This document shows positions 1-9,424 of a stretch of DNA of 9,424 nt, piece after piece. A model generated the notes under the pieces. That model was given only the letters and a program-made list of their open reading frames with translations, was not told the DNA's origin and did not search any database. The stretch is from IMG/VR virus record IMGVR_UViG_2563366805_000008. One strand, written 5' to 3'. Within the stretch, counting starts at the first letter, position 1; each line of letters begins with the position of its first letter. A program made the translations under genes and the position numbers. The DNA comes from a virus (lineage: Duplodnaviria; Heunggongvirae; Uroviricota; Caudoviricetes).

Positions 1-111
1 GTAATAATCACTTTTTCAACCGTGCTATAGTAAGAAAGTTAGGTAAGTACAATAAAAGTATCTATCCTGAACGAAGCGTCCTGAGCTATGGTTTTACTAT
101 AGGGACTGCCA

Positions 112-435
112 ATGGATGCTGGCGTTCTCGTTCTAGCAGTTCAACAATTCCCAATCACAAAACAATTCACTGATAACGAACTTTGCACACTCGCCTGGTT
201 ATGGCGAGCAGGGAATGTGATGTTAATTGCCTACCAGAACGTTACTCATCTTCTTCAGGATGCGGAGCATGGTGAGGCTGGTCACTTCACTTCCATCGAG
301 CAAGAATATCCCCAGATACTCAACAGAGCGCGAGCAATCCTCGCCCGAGAAACGGCACATGTAAAACTTCAGCCGTGGCAGGATGATAAGTGGAGTCGAG
401 TATTGCCGCATTTACCTCAGAATCTGTTTCAATAA
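112..435 (+). CDS. hypothetical protein (107 aa), no family recognised
   Basis: Open frame from ATG 112 to TAA 433-435; in-frame stop TAG at 100-102 just upstream, so it is not the tail of a longer gene in this frame. G+C looks near the local average. No motif I can assign. No obvious Shine-Dalgarno checked. Confidence 0.35.
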   Translation: MDAGVLVLAVQQFPITKQFTDNELCTLAWLWRAGNVMLIAYQNVTHLLQDAEHGEAGHFTSIEQEYPQILNRARAILARETAHVKLQPWQDDKWSRVLPHLPQNLFQ

Positions 436-453
436 AGGCGCTAGTTAGTAAGG

Positions 454-479
454 CTTCCGTCATTCTGCGATGACGGAAG
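454..479. other. perfect 10-bp inverted repeat / stem-loop (CTTCCGTCAT-tctgcg-ATGACGGAAG)
   Basis: Read directly: 454-463 is the reverse complement of 470-479, 6-nt loop. No U-tract on either strand, so more likely an operator-type palindrome or RNA structure than an intrinsic terminator. Confidence 0.4.
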
Positions 480-548
480 TGCGGGCTGCGTACGGGAGAG
501 CAATTGTATGAATAATATAAATATTCCGCTCACTCCATATAGCGATTT

Positions 549-595
549 CTGATACAAACTTATCTATTGTGGTAAAATTATAGAAACAAACTTAT
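549..595 (+). promoter_or_regulatory. candidate sigma70 promoter for the HNH gene: -35 CTGATA (549-554), 18-bp spacer, extended -10 TGgTAAAAT (570-578), flanked by direct repeats ACAAACTTAT (554-563 and 586-595)
   Basis: Pattern match by eye only. The TG lies at the -15/-14 positions relative to the TAAAAT hexamer. The two 10-bp direct repeats are 32 bp apart and bracket the -10 element. Confidence 0.3.
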
Positions 596-609
596 AGCGT
601 ACTAACCAT

Positions 610-1392
610 ATGGACAATATTAATAAACACGGGCTCTCAAGAAGAATACCTGAGACAATAAAACGTCAGATAAGGCAAAGGTGCGGCTTTGGCTGTGTAA
701 TTTGTGGATTTGGATTTTATGATTATGAGCATTTTAAACCTGACTTCGTTGATGCCAAAATACATGATCCGAATGGAATGACACTTCTTTGCTCCCAATG
801 CAATCAAAAAAGAGCTCGTGGTAGACTTTCAGCACAGACAGTGGAAATAGCTGACAGAAATCCCAAGTGCTTACAGGCTGGTTTTGCAAATGAAATGTTT
901 GATTTTCATAATGAGCCTATAACAGTAAAATTTGCAGGAGTGACGTTTCATAACTGTCAAAATTTGATTGTAGTCAACGAACAACCCATTCTTTCTGTGA
1001 AACCTTCACCCATACCACATGGACCGATGCTTTTATCAGGAATTTTCTGTAATTCTATTGGTAAGGAGACTTTACTGATAGATGAAAATGAATGGAAAGC
1101 TAAATCAGACAATTGGGATGTGGAGTGTACCGGCCCGCGTATAACAATACGACGTGGGCCAGGAGAGTTTGCCCTCGTTCTAAAAATGGAACCTCCAACA
1201 GGATTGATTGTTGAGCGTCTTGATATGTTGTATGAAGGGGTCAGGATGAAAGGAGATAAAGATCTGCTGGAAGTTTCGATTAATGGAGGTCCCTTGCACA
1301 GATGGCAATCATGCTCAATGTCAAATTGCCATACAGGGCTTGCGATTCAGGGCGGTATTAGAGCTGCTAATGATCCTTTGTATTGCGCCTAA
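610..1392 (+). CDS. HNH (His-Me finger) nuclease domain protein with uncharacterised ~190-aa C-terminal domain (260 aa)
   Basis: ORF 610-1392. N-terminal ~70 aa carry an HNH zinc-finger layout: C25-x3-C29-x2-C32, Y-E-H41, D-P-N55-G, L-L-C61-x2-C64-N65. Residues ~75-260 match nothing I recognise. Visibly AT-rich with rare codons (AGA, AGG, ATA); my hand count of the first 60 nt gives about 37% G+C versus about 48% for the start of rusA. Weak Shine-Dalgarno. Confidence 0.75.
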   Translation: MDNINKHGLSRRIPETIKRQIRQRCGFGCVICGFGFYDYEHFKPDFVDAKIHDPNGMTLLCSQCNQKRARGRLSAQTVEIADRNPKCLQAGFANEMFDFHNEPITVKFAGVTFHNCQNLIVVNEQPILSVKPSPIPHGPMLLSGIFCNSIGKETLLIDENEWKAKSDNWDVECTGPRITIRRGPGEFALVLKMEPPTGLIVERLDMLYEGVRMKGDKDLLEVSINGGPLHRWQSCSMSNCHTGLAIQGGIRAANDPLYCA

Positions 1393-1434
1393 ATCCACTA
1401 AATTGATTTTCAACAATCAACTTGCCATAATTAA

Positions 1435-1471
1435 GTCACCGGAGTTTGAACTCCTCCGGTGACTTCTGCGC
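1435..1471 (+). terminator. putative intrinsic terminator after the HNH gene (GTCACCGGAG-tttgaactc-CTCCGGTGAC then TTCTG)
   Basis: 10-bp perfect stem read directly at 1435-1463. The downstream T-tract is short (TTCTGCG); the reverse strand has TTAATTATGG after the stem, so it may act in either direction. Confidence 0.45.
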
Positions 1472-1584
1472 TAAACGGGGACGTTTATGCGCACATACAA
1501 TCCAACCTCTCTTCTCCATTCACAGATGCAGAAATGCACCTGCGATATTTTGCATCCAGCGTTTGATCTCTGCGGAGATGAAGC

Positions 1585-2040
1585 GTGAACCTCCCACAAG
1601 ATGGTATCAAATTGCATCGCGGTAACTTCACCGCTATCGGTCGGCAGATCCAGCCTTATCTGGAGGACGGCAAATGCTTTCGCATGGTGCTTAAACCGTG
1701 GCGCGAGAGACGCAGTCTTTCCCAGAATGCACTCAGCCACATGTGGTACAGCGAAATCAGTGAATACCTCATCAGCAAGGGTAAAACGTTCGCTACTCCA
1801 GCTTGGGTAAAAGATGCTCTCAAACACACATATCTCGGTTATGAAACCAAAGACCTGGTTGATGTCGTAACCGGTGATATCACCACTATCCAGTCGTTAC
1901 GCCATACCTCCGATCTTGATACCGGAGAGATGTATGTCTTCCTGTGTAAGGTTGAAGCCTGGGCGATGAATATTGGTTGCCACCTGACTATTCCACAGAG
2001 CTGCGAGTTTCAGCTGCTGCGCGACAAGCAGGAGGCGTAA
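1585..2040 (+). CDS. ybcN: NinB-family protein, YbcN-like (151 aa), GTG start
   Basis: Translation matches my recollection of DLP12 YbcN and shares the RSLSQN motif with lambda NinB. In-frame TGA at 1579-1581 forces the GTG 1585 start; GGAG at 1574-1577 as RBS. Stop TAA 2038-2040 overlaps the ninE ATG. Confidence 0.85.
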
Positions 2041-2210
2041 TGGCTACACCGCTTATTCGTGTCATGAACGGACACATCTACAGAGTACCAAATCGTCGTA
2101 AGCGTAAACCTGAGCTGAAGCCATCCGAAATACCAACACTGCTCGGATATACCGCCAGCTTGGTTGATAAAAAATGGTTGCGACTGGCAGCAAGGAGGAG
2201 TCATGGCTGA
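2040..2210 (+). CDS. ninE: NinE protein (56 aa)
   Basis: ATG 2040 overlaps the preceding TAA (TAATG). AGGAGG at 2027-2032. C-terminus YTASLVDKKWLRLAARR resembles lambda NinE. Below the ORF-track size cut-off as an independent ORF but present inside the 1977-2210 frame. Confidence 0.8.
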   Translation: MATPLIRVMNGHIYRVPNRRKRKPELKPSEIPTLLGYTASLVDKKWLRLAARRSHG

Positions 2211-2493
2211 TTTGAGAAAAGCAGCGCGTGGTCGGGAATGCCAGGTAAGAATCCCTGGCGTATGTAATGGCAACCCTGAAACGTCTGTACTGGCACATAT
2301 CCGGCTGGCTGGATTGTGCGGTACCGGTATCAAACCGCCAGACCTGATTGCCACCATTGCATGTTCTGCCTGCCACGACGAAATCGACCGCCGCACACAT
2401 TTTGTCGATGCTGCATATGCAAAAGAATGCGCGCTGGAAGGTATGGCGAGAACACAGGTTATCTGGCTGAAAGAGGGGGTTATTAAGGCGTGA
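2203..2493 (+). CDS. ybcO: YbcO-like protein (DUF1364, putative zinc-binding nuclease; 96 aa)
   Basis: Start ATG 2203 ([14 protein letters not shown]...) preceded by AAGGAGGA at 2193-2200; overlaps the ninE stop by 8 nt. Cys/His-rich. Matches remembered DLP12 YbcO. Confidence 0.85.
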
Positions 2494-2852
2494 ATACCTA
2501 CAGCATCACATTACCCTGGCCTCCGAGCAATAATCGCTATTACCGCCATAATCGCGGGCGCACGCACATCAGCGCAGAGGGGCAGGCATACCGCGATAAC
2601 GTCGCCCGAATCATTAAAAACGCAATGCTGGATATCGGCCTGGCTATGCCTGTGAAAATCCGCATTGAGTGCCACATGCCGGATCGCCGTCGCCGTGACC
2701 TGGATAATCTGCAAAAAGCCGCTTTTGACGCACTCACTAAAGCAGGTTTCTGGCTGGATGATGCTCAGGTCGTTGATTACCGCGTTGTGAAGATGCCTGT
2801 TACCAAAGGTGGGAGGCTGGAACTGACCATCACCGAAATGGGGAATGAATGA
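2490..2852 (+). CDS. rusA: RusA Holliday-junction resolvase (120 aa), GTG start
   Basis: [24 protein letters not shown]... matches remembered E. coli RusA. GTG 2490 overlaps the ybcO TGA (GTGA); GAGGGGG RBS at 2473-2479. Confidence 0.9.
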
Positions 2853-2989
2853 TGTTTGAGTTTTATATGGCAGAACTTCTTCGCCACCGCTGGGGGCATC
2901 TGCGCTTATATCGTTTCCCCGGTTCTGTTTTGACCGATTACCGAATACTGAAGAATTACGCCAAAACCCTGACAGGAGCAGGAGTATGA
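2849..2989 (+). CDS. ylcG: YlcG-like small protein (46 aa)
   Basis: Hand translation: [46 protein letters not shown], stop TGA 2987-2989. ATG 2849 overlaps the rusA stop (ATGA). Not in the ORF track because it is under 60 aa. Confidence 0.6.
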
Positions 2990-3074
2990 AGTCAGAGATA
3001 ACAATCAACTAATACTGTTTTGTTGATTTTTGCTTGTGATTGGCGTTCTGGTCTGATTTTTGTGGAGTAAGTTG

Positions 3075-3458
3075 ATGCGTGATATTCAGATGGTTCTTGA
3101 GCGTTGGGGAGCGTGGGCGGCTAATAATCATGAAGATGTGACCTGGTCGTCCATTGCCGCCGGTTTTAAGGGATTAATTCCTTCAAAAGTAAAATCTCGC
3201 CCGCAATGTTGTGACGATGACGCGATGATCATTTGCGGGTGCATGGCCCGTCTGAAAAAGAACAACAGCGATTTGCACGATTTATTAGTAGATTATTATG
3301 TAGTCGGTATGACATTCATGTCACTGGCAGGTAAGCATTGCTGCTCTGATGGTTATATCGGGAAAAGGTTACAGAAGGCTGAGGGCATAATTGAAGGGAT
3401 GTTAATGGCATTAGATATCCGGTTAGAGATGGATATCGTTGTTAATAACTCTAATTAA
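3075..3458 (+). CDS. quuD: late-gene antiterminator Q (QuuD-like, 127 aa)
   Basis: [24 protein letters not shown]... with Cys-rich zinc-finger region. ATG 3075 preceded by GGAG at 3064-3067. The ORF track's upstream start at 3060 is a TTG with no RBS. Confidence 0.85.
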
Positions 3459-3597
3459 TATGCCAATTGTTTACTAAAAATTATTAAAAATGGGGCGTTG
3501 AGACGCCCCCAAAAATAAAGGGTAATATATAACAGAAGGTTTATATAGTTAGAAGCAAGGTTGTGCTTCTAAAGGAAGTGGCTTGAGGGAGCCACTT
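3459..3597 (+). promoter_or_regulatory. putative late promoter PR'/qut interval downstream of Q
   Basis: By lambdoid architecture PR' lies just 3' of Q and upstream of tR'. Candidate -35 TTGAGA (3498-3503) and -10 TAATAT (3523-3528) with a non-optimal 19-bp spacer. Two further hairpins at 3549-3572 and 3576-3597 resemble the structured 6S-like leader. Exact promoter position not resolved. Confidence 0.35.
3485..3509 (-). terminator. putative intrinsic terminator for the minus-strand porin transcript (GGGGCGT-ctca-ACGCCCC followed by ATTTTT on the minus strand)
   Basis: 7-bp GC-rich stem at 3492-3509 read directly; on the minus strand it is followed by a T5 run. Lies about 140 nt downstream of the porin stop. 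Confidence 0.4.
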
Positions 3598-3638
3598 ATA
3601 TGTTGGGGAGGCAACGCCTCCCGCAACATATCTTTTTC
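3598..3638 (+). terminator. tR'-like intrinsic terminator of the short late leader transcript
   Basis: ATATGTTG-GGGAGGC-aac-GCCTCCC-g-CAACATAT (3598-3631) followed by CTTTTTC (3632-3638). Strong GC-rich stem plus T-run on the + strand, about 140 nt after the Q stop. Confidence 0.6.
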
Positions 3639-3647
3639 GTAATCAGA

Positions 3648-4745
3648 TTAGAACTGGTAAACCAGACCTACAGCAACGATGTCATCAGTGCTTACACCGA
3701 GTGCTTTAGTGAAGTCATTTTTGTCAAGCAGGTTGATTTTGTAATCAACGAAAGTAGACATATTTTTGTTGAAGTAATAGGTTGCACCTACATCAACATA
3801 TTTGACTAAGTCCTGATCGCCCCATACTCCAAGATCTTTACCTTTAGATTGCAGGTAAGCAACGGACGGACGCAGACCGAAATCGAACTGATATTGTGCA
3901 ACAGCTTCGAAGTTTTGGGCTTTATTAGCAACGAAGTGATCAGCAAATACAGTCATATTCTGGGTTTCAGAATAGGTAGTGGCCAGGTAAATGTTGTTAG
4001 CGTCATATTTCAGACCTGCGGCCCAAACTTCTGCATTTTTACCGGAAGCAAATACTTCAGGAAGAACTTTCCCTGCATTAACTTGAGTGTCGGTACGATC
4101 AGATTTCGCATAAGTTGCACCGATACCGAATCCTTCGTATTCATAGGTAGCAGAGAAACCGAAGCCATCACCGTTACCTTCAGTGTAGTTATCGAAATCG
4201 CTACGATCGTTTTTGCCTTGGTACTGAGCAGCAAAGTTCAGACCATCAACCAGACCAAAGAAGTCGTTGTTACGATAGGTTGCAACACCAGTGGTGCGAC
4301 CAGTCATGAACACATCTGTTTGGGTCCAGGTATCGCCACCGAATTCTGGCAGAACGTCAGTCCACGCACCGATGTCGTATGCTACACCGTAGTTACGGCC
4401 GTAATCGATTGAGCCGTAGTCACCGAATTTCAGGCCTGCAAATGCAAGACGGGTTTTGTCTTTGGAGGAACCTTGAGATTCAGCGCGGTTGCCTTTGAAT
4501 TCATATTCCCACTGACCGAAACCAGTCAGTTGATCGTTGATTTGGGTTTCACCTTTGAAGCCAAGACGGGCATAAGTAGTATCACCATCATCTGCATCAT
4601 TAGAGGAGAAGTAGTGCTTGGCATTAACTTTCCCGTACAGATCCAGCTTGTTACTGTCTTTATTATAAATTTCAGCTGCCTGAGCAGACATCGCCATCAG
4701 TACTGATGCAGCTACAGCAGAAATTGCCACTGTTAATTTTTTCAT
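3648..4745 (-). CDS. nmpC: outer-membrane porin, NmpC/OmpD/Lc family (365 aa), apparently intact
   Basis: Signal peptide [23 protein letters not shown] then AEIYNKD; general-porin motifs; C-terminal VAVGLVYQF beta-barrel signature. Uninterrupted 1098-nt ORF. RBS AAGGG upstream of ATG (plus strand 4743-4745 = CAT). Confidence 0.9.
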
Positions 4746-5334
4746 CGTGAGCCCTTTTTTTTGAACTATTATTAAAAAATGATGTCACTGCGCGATAAAT
4801 ATTCATCTAATCAATGTGATTATTTCAAGATGTAAGTTTTGGTTTCTCGTTTGATTTGTGAAGTAGATCTCTATTTTTATCTGAACTTTTTTCTATCGAA
4901 TCCTATTCATAGCTCTTGGCTGAATAAAAATAAATCTATTAGCCAATTTATATTAACAGCTGTTATTTATAAGTGCTCTATAATTTGAAGGTTCAATTTA
5001 AATCGGCTAAAAATAACACTGGAAATTATTTGTTGGTTATTTGTTGAGGTTTTCTTATGTATTTGTGGTGGTGTTTTGAACACTCGGTAGCATTCTCATA
5101 AATATCATTCAGTGGTTTACGTACGTAAAAAATTGGTTATGCTGTTAAGAGTGGTTACTTCGTCACACAGCTTAAACCCGCCGTCGAGCTGGTTTTTCCA
5201 TTTTTTGAGTCTCGATATTAGCTGATAACTCAATACCTGAGTTATTCACTGACTCCGAGTCTGTTACGTTTCTGCTTTTTTGCGATACGTTGTATTCCCT
5301 CAATTTACACCCGCTTTGTCTGCGAGGTGGGGTT
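4746..5334. promoter_or_regulatory. long AT-rich intergenic region upstream of the porin gene and upstream of the lysis cassette
   Basis: About 590 bp with no convincing ORF, many A/T tracts and a short inverted repeat ATAACTCA-atacc-TGAGTTAT around 5225-5245. Presumed porin promoter/regulatory region; no specific binding site could be assigned by eye. Confidence 0.3.
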
Positions 5335-5550
5335 ATGAAATCCATGGATAAGTTAACAACGGGTGTCGCCTATGGCACCTCAGCAGGTAGTGCCGGTTAC
5401 TGGTTTTTACAGCTGCTCGATAAAGTCACGCCCTCACAGTGGGCAGCAATAGGTGTGCTGGGTAGCCTGGTATTTGGCCTGCTGACGTACCTGACAAACC
5501 TTTATTTCAAGATTAAAGAAGATAAGCGCAAGGCTGCGAGAGGTGAATAA
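5335..5550 (+). CDS. essD: S21-type pinholin (71 aa) with dual-start motif MKSM
   Basis: [26 protein letters not shown]... matches the phage-21 S / EssD class. Two in-frame Met codons (M1, M4) typical of holin/antiholin pairs. RBS GAGGTGGGG at 5324-5332. Stop TAA 5548-5550 overlaps the endolysin ATG. Confidence 0.85.
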
Positions 5551-6047
5551 TGCCTCCATCATTACGAAAAGCCGTTGCTGCTGCTATTGGTGGCGGAGCA
5601 ATTGCTATAGCATCAGTGTTAATTACTGGCCCAAGTGGTAACGATGGTCTGGAAGGTGTCAGCTACATACCATACAAAGATATTGTTGGTGTATGGACTG
5701 TATGTCACGGGCATACAGGAAAAGACATCATGCTCGGTAAAACGTATACCAAAGCAGAATGCAAAGCCCTCCTGAATAAAGACCTTGCCACGGTCGCCAG
5801 ACAAATTAACCCGTACATCAAAGTCGATATACCGGAAACAATGCGCGGCGCTCTTTACTCATTCGTTTACAACGTGGGTGCTGGCAATTTCAGAACATCG
5901 ACGCTTCTTCGCAAAATAAACCAGGGCGATATCAAAGGCGCATGTGATCAGCTACGTCGCTGGACATATGCTGGCGGTAAGCAATGGAAAGGTCTCATGA
6001 CTCGTCGTGAGATTGAGCGTGAAATCTGTTTGTGGGGTCAGCAATGA
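5550..6047 (+). CDS. rrrD: SAR endolysin (R21-type lysozyme, 165 aa)
   Basis: N-terminal signal-anchor-release segment [20 protein letters not shown]; catalytic triad at E35, D44, T50 as in phage-21 R. Stop TGA 6045-6047 overlaps the Rz ATG at 6044. Confidence 0.9.
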
Positions 6048-6536: not shown

Positions 6537-6830
6537 TTATTGTGAGCAATACACACGCGCTTCCAGCGGAGTATAAATGCCTAAAGTAATAAAACCGAGC
6601 AATCCATTTACGAATGTTTGCTGGGTTTCTGTTTTAACAACATTTTCTGCGCCGCCACAAATTTTGGCTGCATCAACAGTTTTCTCCTGTCCAATTCCCG
6701 AAACGAAGAAGTGATGGGTGATGGTTTCCTTTGGTGTTACTGCTGTCGGTTTGTTTCCAACAGTAAACGTCTGTTGAGCACATCCTGTAATAAGCATTGC
6801 CAGAGCGGCAGAAAACAACATTTTTTTCAT
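6537..6830 (-). CDS. borD: Bor lipoprotein (97 aa; Iss-like serum-resistance family)
   Basis: MKKMLFSAALAMLITGCAQQ... with lipobox ITGC; matches remembered lambda Bor / DLP12 BorD. The ORF track's longer N-terminus (from 6878) is not supported by the homologue start. Confidence 0.85.
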   Translation of the reverse strand: MKKMLFSAALAMLITGCAQQTFTVGNKPTAVTPKETITHHFFVSGIGQEKTVDAAKICGGAENVVKTETQQTFVNGLLGFITLGIYTPLEARVYCSQ

Positions 6831-7264: not shown

Positions 7265-8839
7265 GAGGGGAATACCAACATCTCCGGCGTCACGGTGGTG
7301 TTCCGGGCCGGTGAGCAGGAGCAGACACCGCCGGAGGGATTTGAATCCTCCGGCTCCGAGACGGTGCTGGGTACGGAAGTGAAATACGACACGCCGATCA
7401 CCCGGACCATCACGTCGGCAAACATTGACCGACTGCGTTTTACCTTCGGCGTGCAGGCACTGGTGGAAACCACCTCAAAGGGGGACAGGAATCCGTCGGA
7501 AGTCCGCCTGCTGGTTCAGATACAGCGTAATGGTGGCTGGGTGACGGAAAAAGACATCACCATTAAGGGCAAAACCACCTCGCAGTATCTGGCCTCGGTG
7601 GTGGTGGGTAACCTGCCGCCGCGCCCGTTCAGTATACGGATGCGCAGGATGACGCCGGACAGCACCACAGACCAGCTGCAGAACAAAACGCTCTGGTCGT
7701 CATACACCGAAATCATCGATGTGAAACAGTGCTACCCGAACCAGAGCGGCACGGTGAATGGTGTCACGCCGCCAGCGGTGCAGCATCTGACCGCCGAAGT
7801 CACCGCAGACAGCGGGGAATACCAGGTGCTGGCCCGCTGGGACACGCCGAAGGTGGTGAAGGGCGTGAGCTTCCTGCTTCGCCTGACCGTGGCAGCGGAT
7901 GACGGCAGTGAGCGGCTGGTCAGCACGGCCCGGACGACGGAAACCACTTACCGCTTCACACAACTGGCTCTGGGGAACTACAGGCTGACAGTCCGGGCAG
8001 TAAATGCGTGGGGGCAGCAGGGCGATCCGGCGTCGGTATCGTTCCGGATTGCCGCACCGGCAGCGCCGTCGCGGATTGAGCTGACGCCGGGCTATTTTCA
8101 GATAACCGCCACGCCGCATCTTGCGGTTTATGATCCGACGGTACAGTTTGAGTTCTGGTTCTCGGAAAAGCGGATTGCGGATATCAGGCAGGTTGAAACC
8201 ACAGCACGCTATCTTGGCACGGCGCTGTACTGGATAGCCGCCAGTATCAATATCAGGCCGGGCCATAATTATTATTTTTACGTTCGCAGTGTGAACACCG
8301 TTGGCAAATCGGCATTCGTGGAGGCTGTTGGTCAGCCGAGTGATGACGCATCCGGCTATCTGGATTTTTTCAAAGGCGAGATAGGGAAAACCCATCTGGC
8401 TCAGGAGCTGTGGACGCAGATTGATAACGGTCAGCTTGCGCCTGACCTGGCTGAAATCAGGACATCCATTACGGATGTCAGCAATGAAATCACACAGACC
8501 GTCAATAAGAAACTGGAAGACCAGAGTGCGGCAATTCAGCAGATACAGAAGGTTCAGGTTGATACAAATAATAACCTGAACAGCATGTGGGCTGTGAAGC
8601 TGCAGCAGATGCAGGACGGACGCCTTTATATCGCGGGTATTGGTGCCGGTATTGAGAACACCCCTGACGGCATGCAGAGTCAGGTGCTGCTGGCGGCAGA
8701 CAGGATTGCGATGATTAATCCTGCGAATGGCAACATAAAGCCGATGTTTGTTGGGCAGGGCGATCAGATATTCATGAACGAAGTGTTCCTGAAACGCCTG
8801 ACGGCTCCCACCATTACCAGCGGCGGTAATCCTCCGGTA
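7265..8839 (+). pseudogene. J: remnant of host-specificity / tail-tip protein J: 5'-truncated, apparent internal in-frame deletion near 7741, 3' end replaced by fusion to tfa
   Basis: Frame opens at 7244 after TAG 7241-7243; first possible start is GTG 7295. Homology to my recollection of lambda J begins near codon 56 ([20 protein letters not shown]...), runs to ...[10 protein letters not shown], then jumps to [20 protein letters not shown] (FN3-like region) and ends at ...[16 protein letters not shown]. No J N-terminus and no receptor-binding C-terminus. Confidence 0.65.
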
Positions 8840-9424
8840 ATGGCATTCAGAATGAGTGAACAACCACGGACCATAAAAATTTATAATCTGCTGGCCGGAA
8901 CTAATGAATTTATTGGTGAAGGTGACGCATATATTCCGCCTCATACAGGTCTGCCAGCAAACAGTACCGATATTGCACCGCCAGATATTCCGGCTGGCTT
9001 TGTGGCTGTTTTCAACAGTGATGAGGCATCGTGGCATCTCGTTGAAGATCATCGGGGAAAAACCGTCTATGACGTGGCTTCCGGCGACGCGTTATTTATT
9101 TCTGAACTTGGCTCGTTACCGGAAAATGTCACCTGGTTATCGCCGGAAGGGGAATATCAGAAGTGGAACGGCACAGCCTGGGTGAAGGATACGGAAGCAG
9201 AAAAACTGTTCCGGATCCGGGAGGCGGAAGAAACAAAAAACAGCCTGATGCAGGTAGCCAGTGAGCATATAGCGCCACTTCAGGATGCTGTAGATCTGGA
9301 GATCGCAACGGAGGAAGAAACCTCATTGCTGGAAGCCTGGAAAAAATATCGGGTGTTGCTGAACCGTGTTAATACAACAACTGCACCGGATATTGAATGG
9401 CCAACAGTACCCATTATCGAATAG
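8840..9424 (+). CDS. tfa: tail fiber assembly protein Tfa (194 aa), in frame with the upstream J remnant
   Basis: [49 protein letters not shown]... through ...[11 protein letters not shown] matches remembered lambda/e14 Tfa over its full length. ATG 8840; stop TAG 9422-9424 at the window end. No good SD upstream, and a TAA at 8838-8840 in another frame suggests a relic of the former stf stop. Confidence 0.75.

Follow-up and report, generated by a model that had tools for sequence, protein, structure and literature searches.

Intact copy of the phage-borne lc/nmpC porin cassette between Q and its probable late promoter in a DLP12-type defective prophage of Escherichia coli

The general porin known as Lc in phage PA-2 and as NmpC in Escherichia coli K-12 is encoded by lambdoid phages and by their defective remnants. 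The lc locus of PA-2 was sequenced in 1986 (GenBank J02580), and the K-12 copy lies in the defective prophage DLP12 (the qsr' region). Here we describe a 9,424-bp stretch of viral DNA (IMG/VR record IMGVR_UViG_2563366805_000008, Caudoviricetes; hereafter the window) with a porin gene on its reverse strand at 3648-4745. The feature is already known: it is an intact copy of the phage-borne lc/nmpC gene in a DLP12-type defective prophage of E. coli. The arrangement around it is very probably that of a self-contained porin/IpeX cassette, reversed between the late antiterminator gene Q and its cognate late promoter PR', with late transcription running away from the porin.

The closest described system is PA-2 lc, which has the same orientation, 3' spacer and upstream region; J02580 is 99.3% identical in DNA to window positions 3440-5360, over the end of Q, the porin gene, the spacer and the start of S. 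PA-2 is a viable phage, whereas the window copy belongs to a deleted, non-inducible remnant. The K-12 DLP12 locus has the same neighbors (rusA, ylcG, quuD, nmpC, essD, rrrD, rzpD) at 97-99% DNA identity. The flanks differ: those of the window contain a 260-residue open reading frame (ORF; 610-1392) and, where K-12 has ybcV-nohD, a J'-tfa fusion. Shiga toxin (Stx) phages (933W, Sakai Sp5, Stx2 II) are homologous to the window in Q type, PR', a palindrome, the initial leader and the first hairpin, and their late region runs Q, PR', tR', tRNAs, stx, S. Both carry cargo between Q and S. In Stx phages this cargo follows PR'/tR' in the same orientation and depends on Q antitermination for its expression, whereas in the window it precedes PR' in reverse orientation and has its own, independent expression. 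OmpC, OmpF, PhoE and Salmonella OmpD share the Porin_1 domain, signal peptide, PEFGG motif and C-terminal Phe with the window porin, but the latter is phage-borne, with its own control region and a 3' untranslated region (UTR) small RNA that represses host porins. The bor/iss and lom morons of lambda are likewise outer-membrane genes expressed by the lysogen from within late regions, as unrelated proteins at other insertion sites.

The promoter, its regulators, IpeX and expression in E. coli AW1.7 are taken here from published work. The K-12 nmpC promoter, PnmpC, is a sigma-70 promoter with a mapped transcription start site (TSS) at a G; deleting -199 to -1 abolishes its activity, CRP activates it through two sites, OmpR, IHF and MprA repress it, and it is active enough to drive the IS5 transposase. 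The nmpC homologs of K-12 and CFT073 show strong induction at 37 °C compared with 23 °C, RybB targets nmpC mRNA, and in published work nmpC is regarded as the E. coli equivalent of Salmonella ompD. The host-style control suggested by an earlier reading of this DNA, made from the sequence only, was therefore already in the literature. According to reviews, processing of the phage porin transcript yields IpeX, a 167-nt RNA that acts as a repressor of ompC and ompF. As quoted in papers that cite them, Ruan et al. (2011) found NmpC highly expressed in AW1.7 and heat survival raised by its overexpression.

Identity and intactness of the porin gene

The gene and its product are laid out as follows (PGAP is the Prokaryotic Genome Annotation Pipeline).

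3648-4745, reverse strand: intact lc/nmpC porin gene, recognized from a 365-residue ORF with Pfam and structure matches; PGAP product WP_000737266.1, 'porin'
4677-4745, reverse strand: signal peptide of the porin
3651-4676, reverse strand: mature porin

The product matches Pfam Porin_1 (PF00267) over the whole profile (1-337 of 337) with 522 bits against a cut-off of 23.7 (E 1e-156). It aligns with solved OmpC, OmpK36, PhoE and OmpF chains from residue 24 to the C-terminal Phe (E ~1e-135), residue 24 falling on residue 1 of the solved chains. The translation begins with a 23-residue Sec signal peptide cleaved at SAQA/AEIYNK, carries the loop-3 motif PEFGG (within LPEFGGD) and ends in VGLVYQF, so that the Porin_1 domain, signal peptide, loop-3 motif and C-terminal aromatic residue of a general porin are all present. 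The gene is thus complete, as the sequence-only reading had held, with its signal peptide and C-terminal motif. The end-to-end matches to OmpC and OmpK36 suggest that the protein would form a trimeric 16-strand beta-barrel diffusion pore, and pore activity of NmpC is cited in the literature.

Over the 1,921 bp of 3440-5360, identity to the E. coli AW1.7 chromosome is 100%, and the full window differs from AW1.7 by 4 mismatches in 9,424 bases. The AW1.7 context is a DLP12-type remnant with the order emrE, ybcK, ..., ybcN, ninE, ybcO, rusA, ylcG, quuD, porin, essD, rrrD, rzpD, iss. The porin is 99.5% identical to PA-2 Lc, with two of 365 residues changed (R119H, V174F). The sequence-only reading took the K-12 copy to be disrupted by an insertion sequence (IS), and it is: nmpC of MG1655 is a pseudogene split by IS5B, and a phage record with the K-12 qsr' region annotates the IS5B insertion after codon 346. 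When IS5 and its 4-bp target duplication are taken out, a 365-residue ORF is restored that is also 99.5% identical to the window porin (2 residues differ). Near-identity to both Lc and NmpC, the reverse-strand position between Q and the holin gene, and the IpeX-bearing 3' spacer all place the gene in the Lc/NmpC group.

Of 5426 complete E. coli genomes, 2465 contain at least 80% of segment 3440-5360, as do 36 phage records; 3958 E. coli genomes have some match to the porin segment. The genome counts pool intact and IS-disrupted copies, since the search bridges an IS5-sized gap. In phages ev017, ev207 and PhiR68_2 the porin is annotated either 15 codons longer (start MNIYRAV...) or split in two. 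The 15-codon extension spans the 5' UTR and the region of a sigmaE-like motif described below, and is likely a start-codon miscall.

Cassette boundaries and the position of the PR' homolog

The porin lies between Q and the holin gene on the opposite strand, as the sequence-only reading had placed it; its forward-strand flanks are Q on one side and a phage 21-type holin, lysozyme and Rz on the other. The features that bound it are these.

3075-3458, forward strand: quuD, late antiterminator Q of the 82/933W type (Pfam Phage_antitermQ, E 1e-53; named quuD by PGAP in AW1.7)
3480-3647, reverse strand: porin 3' UTR and IpeX small RNA region, with four to five hairpins, then a terminator hairpin (3492-3509) and U-tract (3480-3491)
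5116-5143, forward strand: PR' homolog, with -35 TTTACG at 5116-5121 and -10 TATGCT at 5138-5143, from homology to Stx-phage PR'
5116-5129, forward strand: 14-bp perfect palindrome TTTACGTACGTAAA over the -35, a putative Q-binding element
5148-5206, forward strand: start of the late leader (+1 at ~5148-5150), with a tR'-like hairpin and U-tract at 5177-5206, from homology
5335-5550, forward strand: essD, class II (phage 21-type) holin, first late gene (Pfam Phage_holin_2_1; named essD by PGAP)

The same reading had put PR' and tR' beside Q and the porin, in antisense, inside the late operon. This placement is not supported by the homology between the window and Stx phages. A blastn comparison of the window with the Q region of Stx2 phage II returns two matches only:

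Q: window 3073-3407, Stx2 phage II 1499-1833, 75%
PR' region: window 5115-5197, Stx2 phage II 1922-2003, 76% over 83 nt, E 2e-10

The PR' block begins 89 bp past the end of the Q alignment in Stx2 phage II and 1,708 bp past it in the window. It is the window's sole homolog of the Stx PR' region, and it lies on the holin side, past the porin start codon; 3459-3647, directly after Q, holds nothing comparable. In phage 06-3462 (OP797663) and Shigella phage Ss-VASD (NC_028685), the 28-bp counterpart of 5116-5143 bears the annotation 'pR' putative late promoter', and the 06-3462 record marks the homolog of hairpin 5177-5197 as a 'possible rho-independent terminator'. The window Q protein is 79-82% identical to Q of many Stx phages, and the PR' homolog stands at the 3' end of Q in ~300 Stx-phage records. 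Sy et al. (PMC7547250) mapped the PR' start of Stx phages, 'closely associated with Q', at a distance of 258 nt before the 3' end of tR'. Measured on the Sakai and Stx2 II sequences, this distance leads to a point just past the -10 hexamer TATCAT, for which the window equivalent is ~5148-5150; the TSS was set by this distance to tR' and not by the printed Sakai coordinate, and its exact position is approximate.

In an alignment of six phages, the leader (TAAGAGTGGTTAC...AACCCGCCG..GCGGGTTTTT) is invariant across Q types, while the promoter part varies with Q type. All members of the 82/933W type carry a 14-bp palindrome over the -35, which reads TTTACGTACGTAAA in the window, where it occurs once, and TTTACGATCGTAAA in Stx phages; the symmetry is kept though the center differs. 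PhiR5_1 and SfII, which have other Q types, show different inverted repeats at the same position. The Q protein of phage 82 is believed to occupy its site as a dimer (PMC4914094, a paper that prints no promoter sequence), and on this ground we infer the palindrome to be the Q-binding element. Conservation among porin-bearing phages is nearly 100% over 5131-5230, versus 68-82% over 4950-5110. A full-text literature search with the PR' sequence string gave no relevant match.

At the other end of the cassette, the spacer between Q and the porin goes with the porin. Phage records with the Q family number 416 and those with the PR' homolog 362, while the Q-porin spacer occurs in 36, all of them porin carriers, indicating that the spacer is part of the porin cassette and not of Q. 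Its identity to the copies in PA-2 and in K-12-type DNA is 100%. The reverse strand from 3650 down to 3470 folds at -64 kcal/mol, versus -33 for shuffled sequences (z -7.4), and a terminator scan found the reverse-strand terminator GGGGCGTCTCAACGCCCC followed by a U-tract at the end of the porin 3' UTR. Rfam, which has no family for IpeX, gave no match over the 3' UTR when the whole window was scanned. RNAalifold on five variants of the 3' UTR found no compensatory pairs, and since these five are too alike for covariation, the structure is supported by folding energy. The porin's own 3' UTR and terminator account for the hairpins next to Q.

One further element of the spacer faces the other way.

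3598-3637, forward strand: terminator-like hairpin (3598-3631) and T-run for rightward transcripts leaving Q, read by eye from the sequence

This hairpin, ATATGTTGGGGAGGC-AAC-GCCTCCCgCAACATAT followed by CTTTTT, was missed by the terminator scan because of a bulge, and it may stop rightward transcripts leaving Q. Such a reading fits published work in K-12, in which adding a strong terminator in the nmpC/quuD spacer changes nothing and no effective rightward read-through from quuD was detected. The 1986 PA-2 record also lists an 'ORF1' of 69 residues, which corresponds to 3600-3809 on the forward strand, antisense to the porin 3' end and 3' UTR, and is probably no gene.

The porin cassette thus occupies ~3459-5115, or 1.66 kb. 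Q and PR' are adjacent in the ~300 Stx-phage records and in PhiR5_1 and are 1.66 kb apart in the 36 porin carriers, which is presence or absence of cargo at a fixed junction, as for a moron. Of the moron's own signals, the terminator is found here and the promoter is known from the K-12 literature, sequence scans having left PnmpC unplaced. In SfII, a reverse-strand gene (positions 1-943, ~340 residues, without a Pfam match) stands directly upstream of the late-leader/S homolog (1001-1214); the position immediately before PR' seems to have taken up reverse-oriented cargo more than once.

These results are best explained if lc/nmpC is a lambdoid-phage moron composed of a sigma-70 promoter in AT-rich DNA, an OmpC-like porin gene, a 3' UTR that yields IpeX, and a terminator. 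Host RNA polymerase would express the porin from the prophage under the control of CRP, OmpR, IHF, MprA, RybB and temperature. By lysogenic conversion, the outer membrane would gain a general diffusion pore in the porin, and IpeX would lower OmpC and OmpF. PA-2 adsorbs to OmpC, and Lc together with IpeX is a classic case of lysogenic conversion that guards against superinfection. The late promoter, with its putative palindromic Q-binding site, its pause/leader region and the first terminator, would lie on the holin side at 5116-5206, and Q would act ~1.66 kb downstream of its own gene. With the cassette between Q and PR', Q-modified late transcription should therefore begin on the holin side, ~400 bp past the first codon of the porin, and proceed in the direction away from that gene.

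Porin control region and alternative transcription models

From the porin ATG to the essD ATG (5335 in the PGAP annotation) the spacer 4746-5334 measures 589 bp, in agreement with the ~590 bp of the sequence-only reading. That reading had taken the whole of it to be AT-rich regulatory DNA of the porin, which holds for the porin-proximal part: GC content is 29.5% over 4746-5115 and 42% over 5116-5334, compared with 46.9% for the whole window, and ~220 bp of the spacer belongs to the late promoter, its leader and its terminator rather than to porin control. The porin side contains the following.

4746-5115, reverse strand: AT-rich porin control region with PnmpC (29.5% GC; PnmpC from the K-12 literature)
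4854-4874, reverse strand: candidate CRP site, mapped from a misc_binding feature of J02580; core TGTGAAGTAGATCTCT at 4857-4872
4762-4789, forward strand: candidate sigmaE-like promoter motif tGAACTa-N16-TCACT, directed toward essD and 17 bp from the porin ATG

A consensus promoter scan of 3300-5600 found no site at threshold, and a relaxed scan of the AT-rich DNA gave ambiguous matches only; we would guess that the PnmpC TSS is the G near 4793. The CRP site at 4854-4874 is plausible, although by motif alone it is not statistically distinguishable from chance (4 CRP motifs found versus 5.4 expected). The second 'CRP site' of J02580 maps to 5150-5170, the first 20 nt of the late leader.

Several observations weigh against PR' at 5116-5143 as the start of late transcription. 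Its hexamers are weak (8 of 12 positions), below the promoter-scan threshold. The Sakai TSS printed in PMC7547250 lies 142 nt from the site that is 258 nt from tR' in NC_002695.2, a mismatch that we assume to be a difference between record versions. Position 5190 is T in the window, PA-2 and ev207 and G in K-12-type copies, ev017 and R68; the T breaks the CCCGC/GCGGG terminator stem of K-12, and an alternative 6-bp stem is predicted. As a further leader polymorphism, the K-12-type copy has a 17-bp deletion at 5271-5287. Finally, PR' may not be the only or the main DLP12 lysis promoter. The lysis promoter reporter fragment of PMC7918800 is given as -121 to +650, and because its forward primer corresponds to window 4673-4692, its numbering implies an essD-directed start at ~4794, with the sigmaE-like motif just upstream. 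It is a tentative possibility that this promoter, beside the porin start codon and with a 540-nt leader across the porin control region, mainly drives the lysis genes, and that 5116-5143 is secondary or vestigial; the two would coexist. The motif is kept in the other porin-bearing phages examined, and PMC7918800 cites both RpoE and Q control of the lysis cassette. However, ~4794 nearly coincides with the guessed start of the divergent PnmpC, so the numbering may have another origin, and both the peak of conservation at 5116-5230 and the Stx-phage homology point to 5116-5143. Either start, ~4794 or ~5148, is on the holin side of the porin gene.

The model in which PR' and tR' directly follow Q, and Q-modified RNA polymerase reads the porin in antisense within the late unit, is highly improbable. 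It has the precedent of lambda and Stx phages, where PR' adjoins Q, and GC-rich hairpins do stand right after Q, of which 3598-3637 could end rightward transcripts; but the spacer that holds them has no homology to any PR', is confined to porin carriers, has its canonical terminator on the reverse strand and shows no promoter-like site at the scan threshold, while the cognate PR' homolog and palindrome at 5116-5143 are unique in the window. Antisense transcripts of the porin could instead arise from the early promoter PR when intact phages such as PA-2 grow lytically, by N-antiterminated read-through past Q. The porin is convergent with Q, and N-modified complexes are generally known from lambda to ignore terminators and run past Q. 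We regard this as unlikely, given that the window is a remnant whose left part has a ren pseudogene, emrE and ybcK instead of an immunity, N and PR region, and given the K-12 result on read-through from the quuD side. That the intact gene is silent in its host is also improbable. By the title of a cited reference, nmpC is a 'quiescent porin' in E. coli B, and AT-rich upstream DNA is typical of silenced foreign DNA; on the other side stand the high NmpC level attributed to AW1.7, whose chromosome is nearly identical to the window, the activity of PnmpC on the IS5 transposase and the strong induction of nmpC homologs at 37 °C. With the self-contained cassette outside the late transcription unit, as is very probable, models in which late RNA synthesis interferes with the porin in antisense would not apply.

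Rest of the window and significance

Other genes of the window lie to either side of the cassette and the lysis genes.

6537-6830, reverse strand: bor/iss serum-resistance lipoprotein gene, right after Rz, a second outer-membrane cargo gene in the lysis region
7295-9424, forward strand: single 709-residue ORF, an internal piece of the tail-tip protein J (FNIII-A, two Ig_J, Phage_Tail_Tip) in frame with Tfa
9183-9381, forward strand: Rfam IS009, a candidate small RNA (225 bits, E 6e-56, full length), inside the tail-fiber-assembly gene 8840-9424
610-1392, forward strand: 260-residue ORF with a Cys-rich N-terminus and a sub-threshold HNH match only (E 0.04); hypothetical in PGAP

The J part of the 709-residue ORF is marked as a pseudogene by PGAP, and the prophage is without everything between Rz/bor and mid-J. 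The 260-residue ORF presumably occupies the place of ybcL/ybcM in K-12 DLP12.

The 370-bp AT-rich block may be common to opposed promoters, with PnmpC directed leftward and PR', perhaps with a sigmaE promoter, directed rightward. CRP, OmpR, IHF and perhaps H-NS acting on this block, or supercoiling from constitutive PR' transcription, might couple porin/IpeX output to leaky expression of the DLP12 lysis genes, and T5190 could tune the leak. We consider this coupling quite unlikely; if true, it would tie together envelope-stress signaling, porin choice and the reported DLP12 lysis and vesicle phenotypes. Reporter fusions of 4746-5334, which the sequence-only reading had suggested, would combine porin control DNA with the late promoter and leader.

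Through the literature, lc/nmpC bears on outer-membrane permeability, on sensitivity to phages and colicins and, reportedly, on the heat resistance of the food isolate AW1.7. What our analysis adds is a correction of the map: in lambdoid phages with lc/nmpC and in DLP12-type remnants, the porin cassette parts Q from the late promoter.

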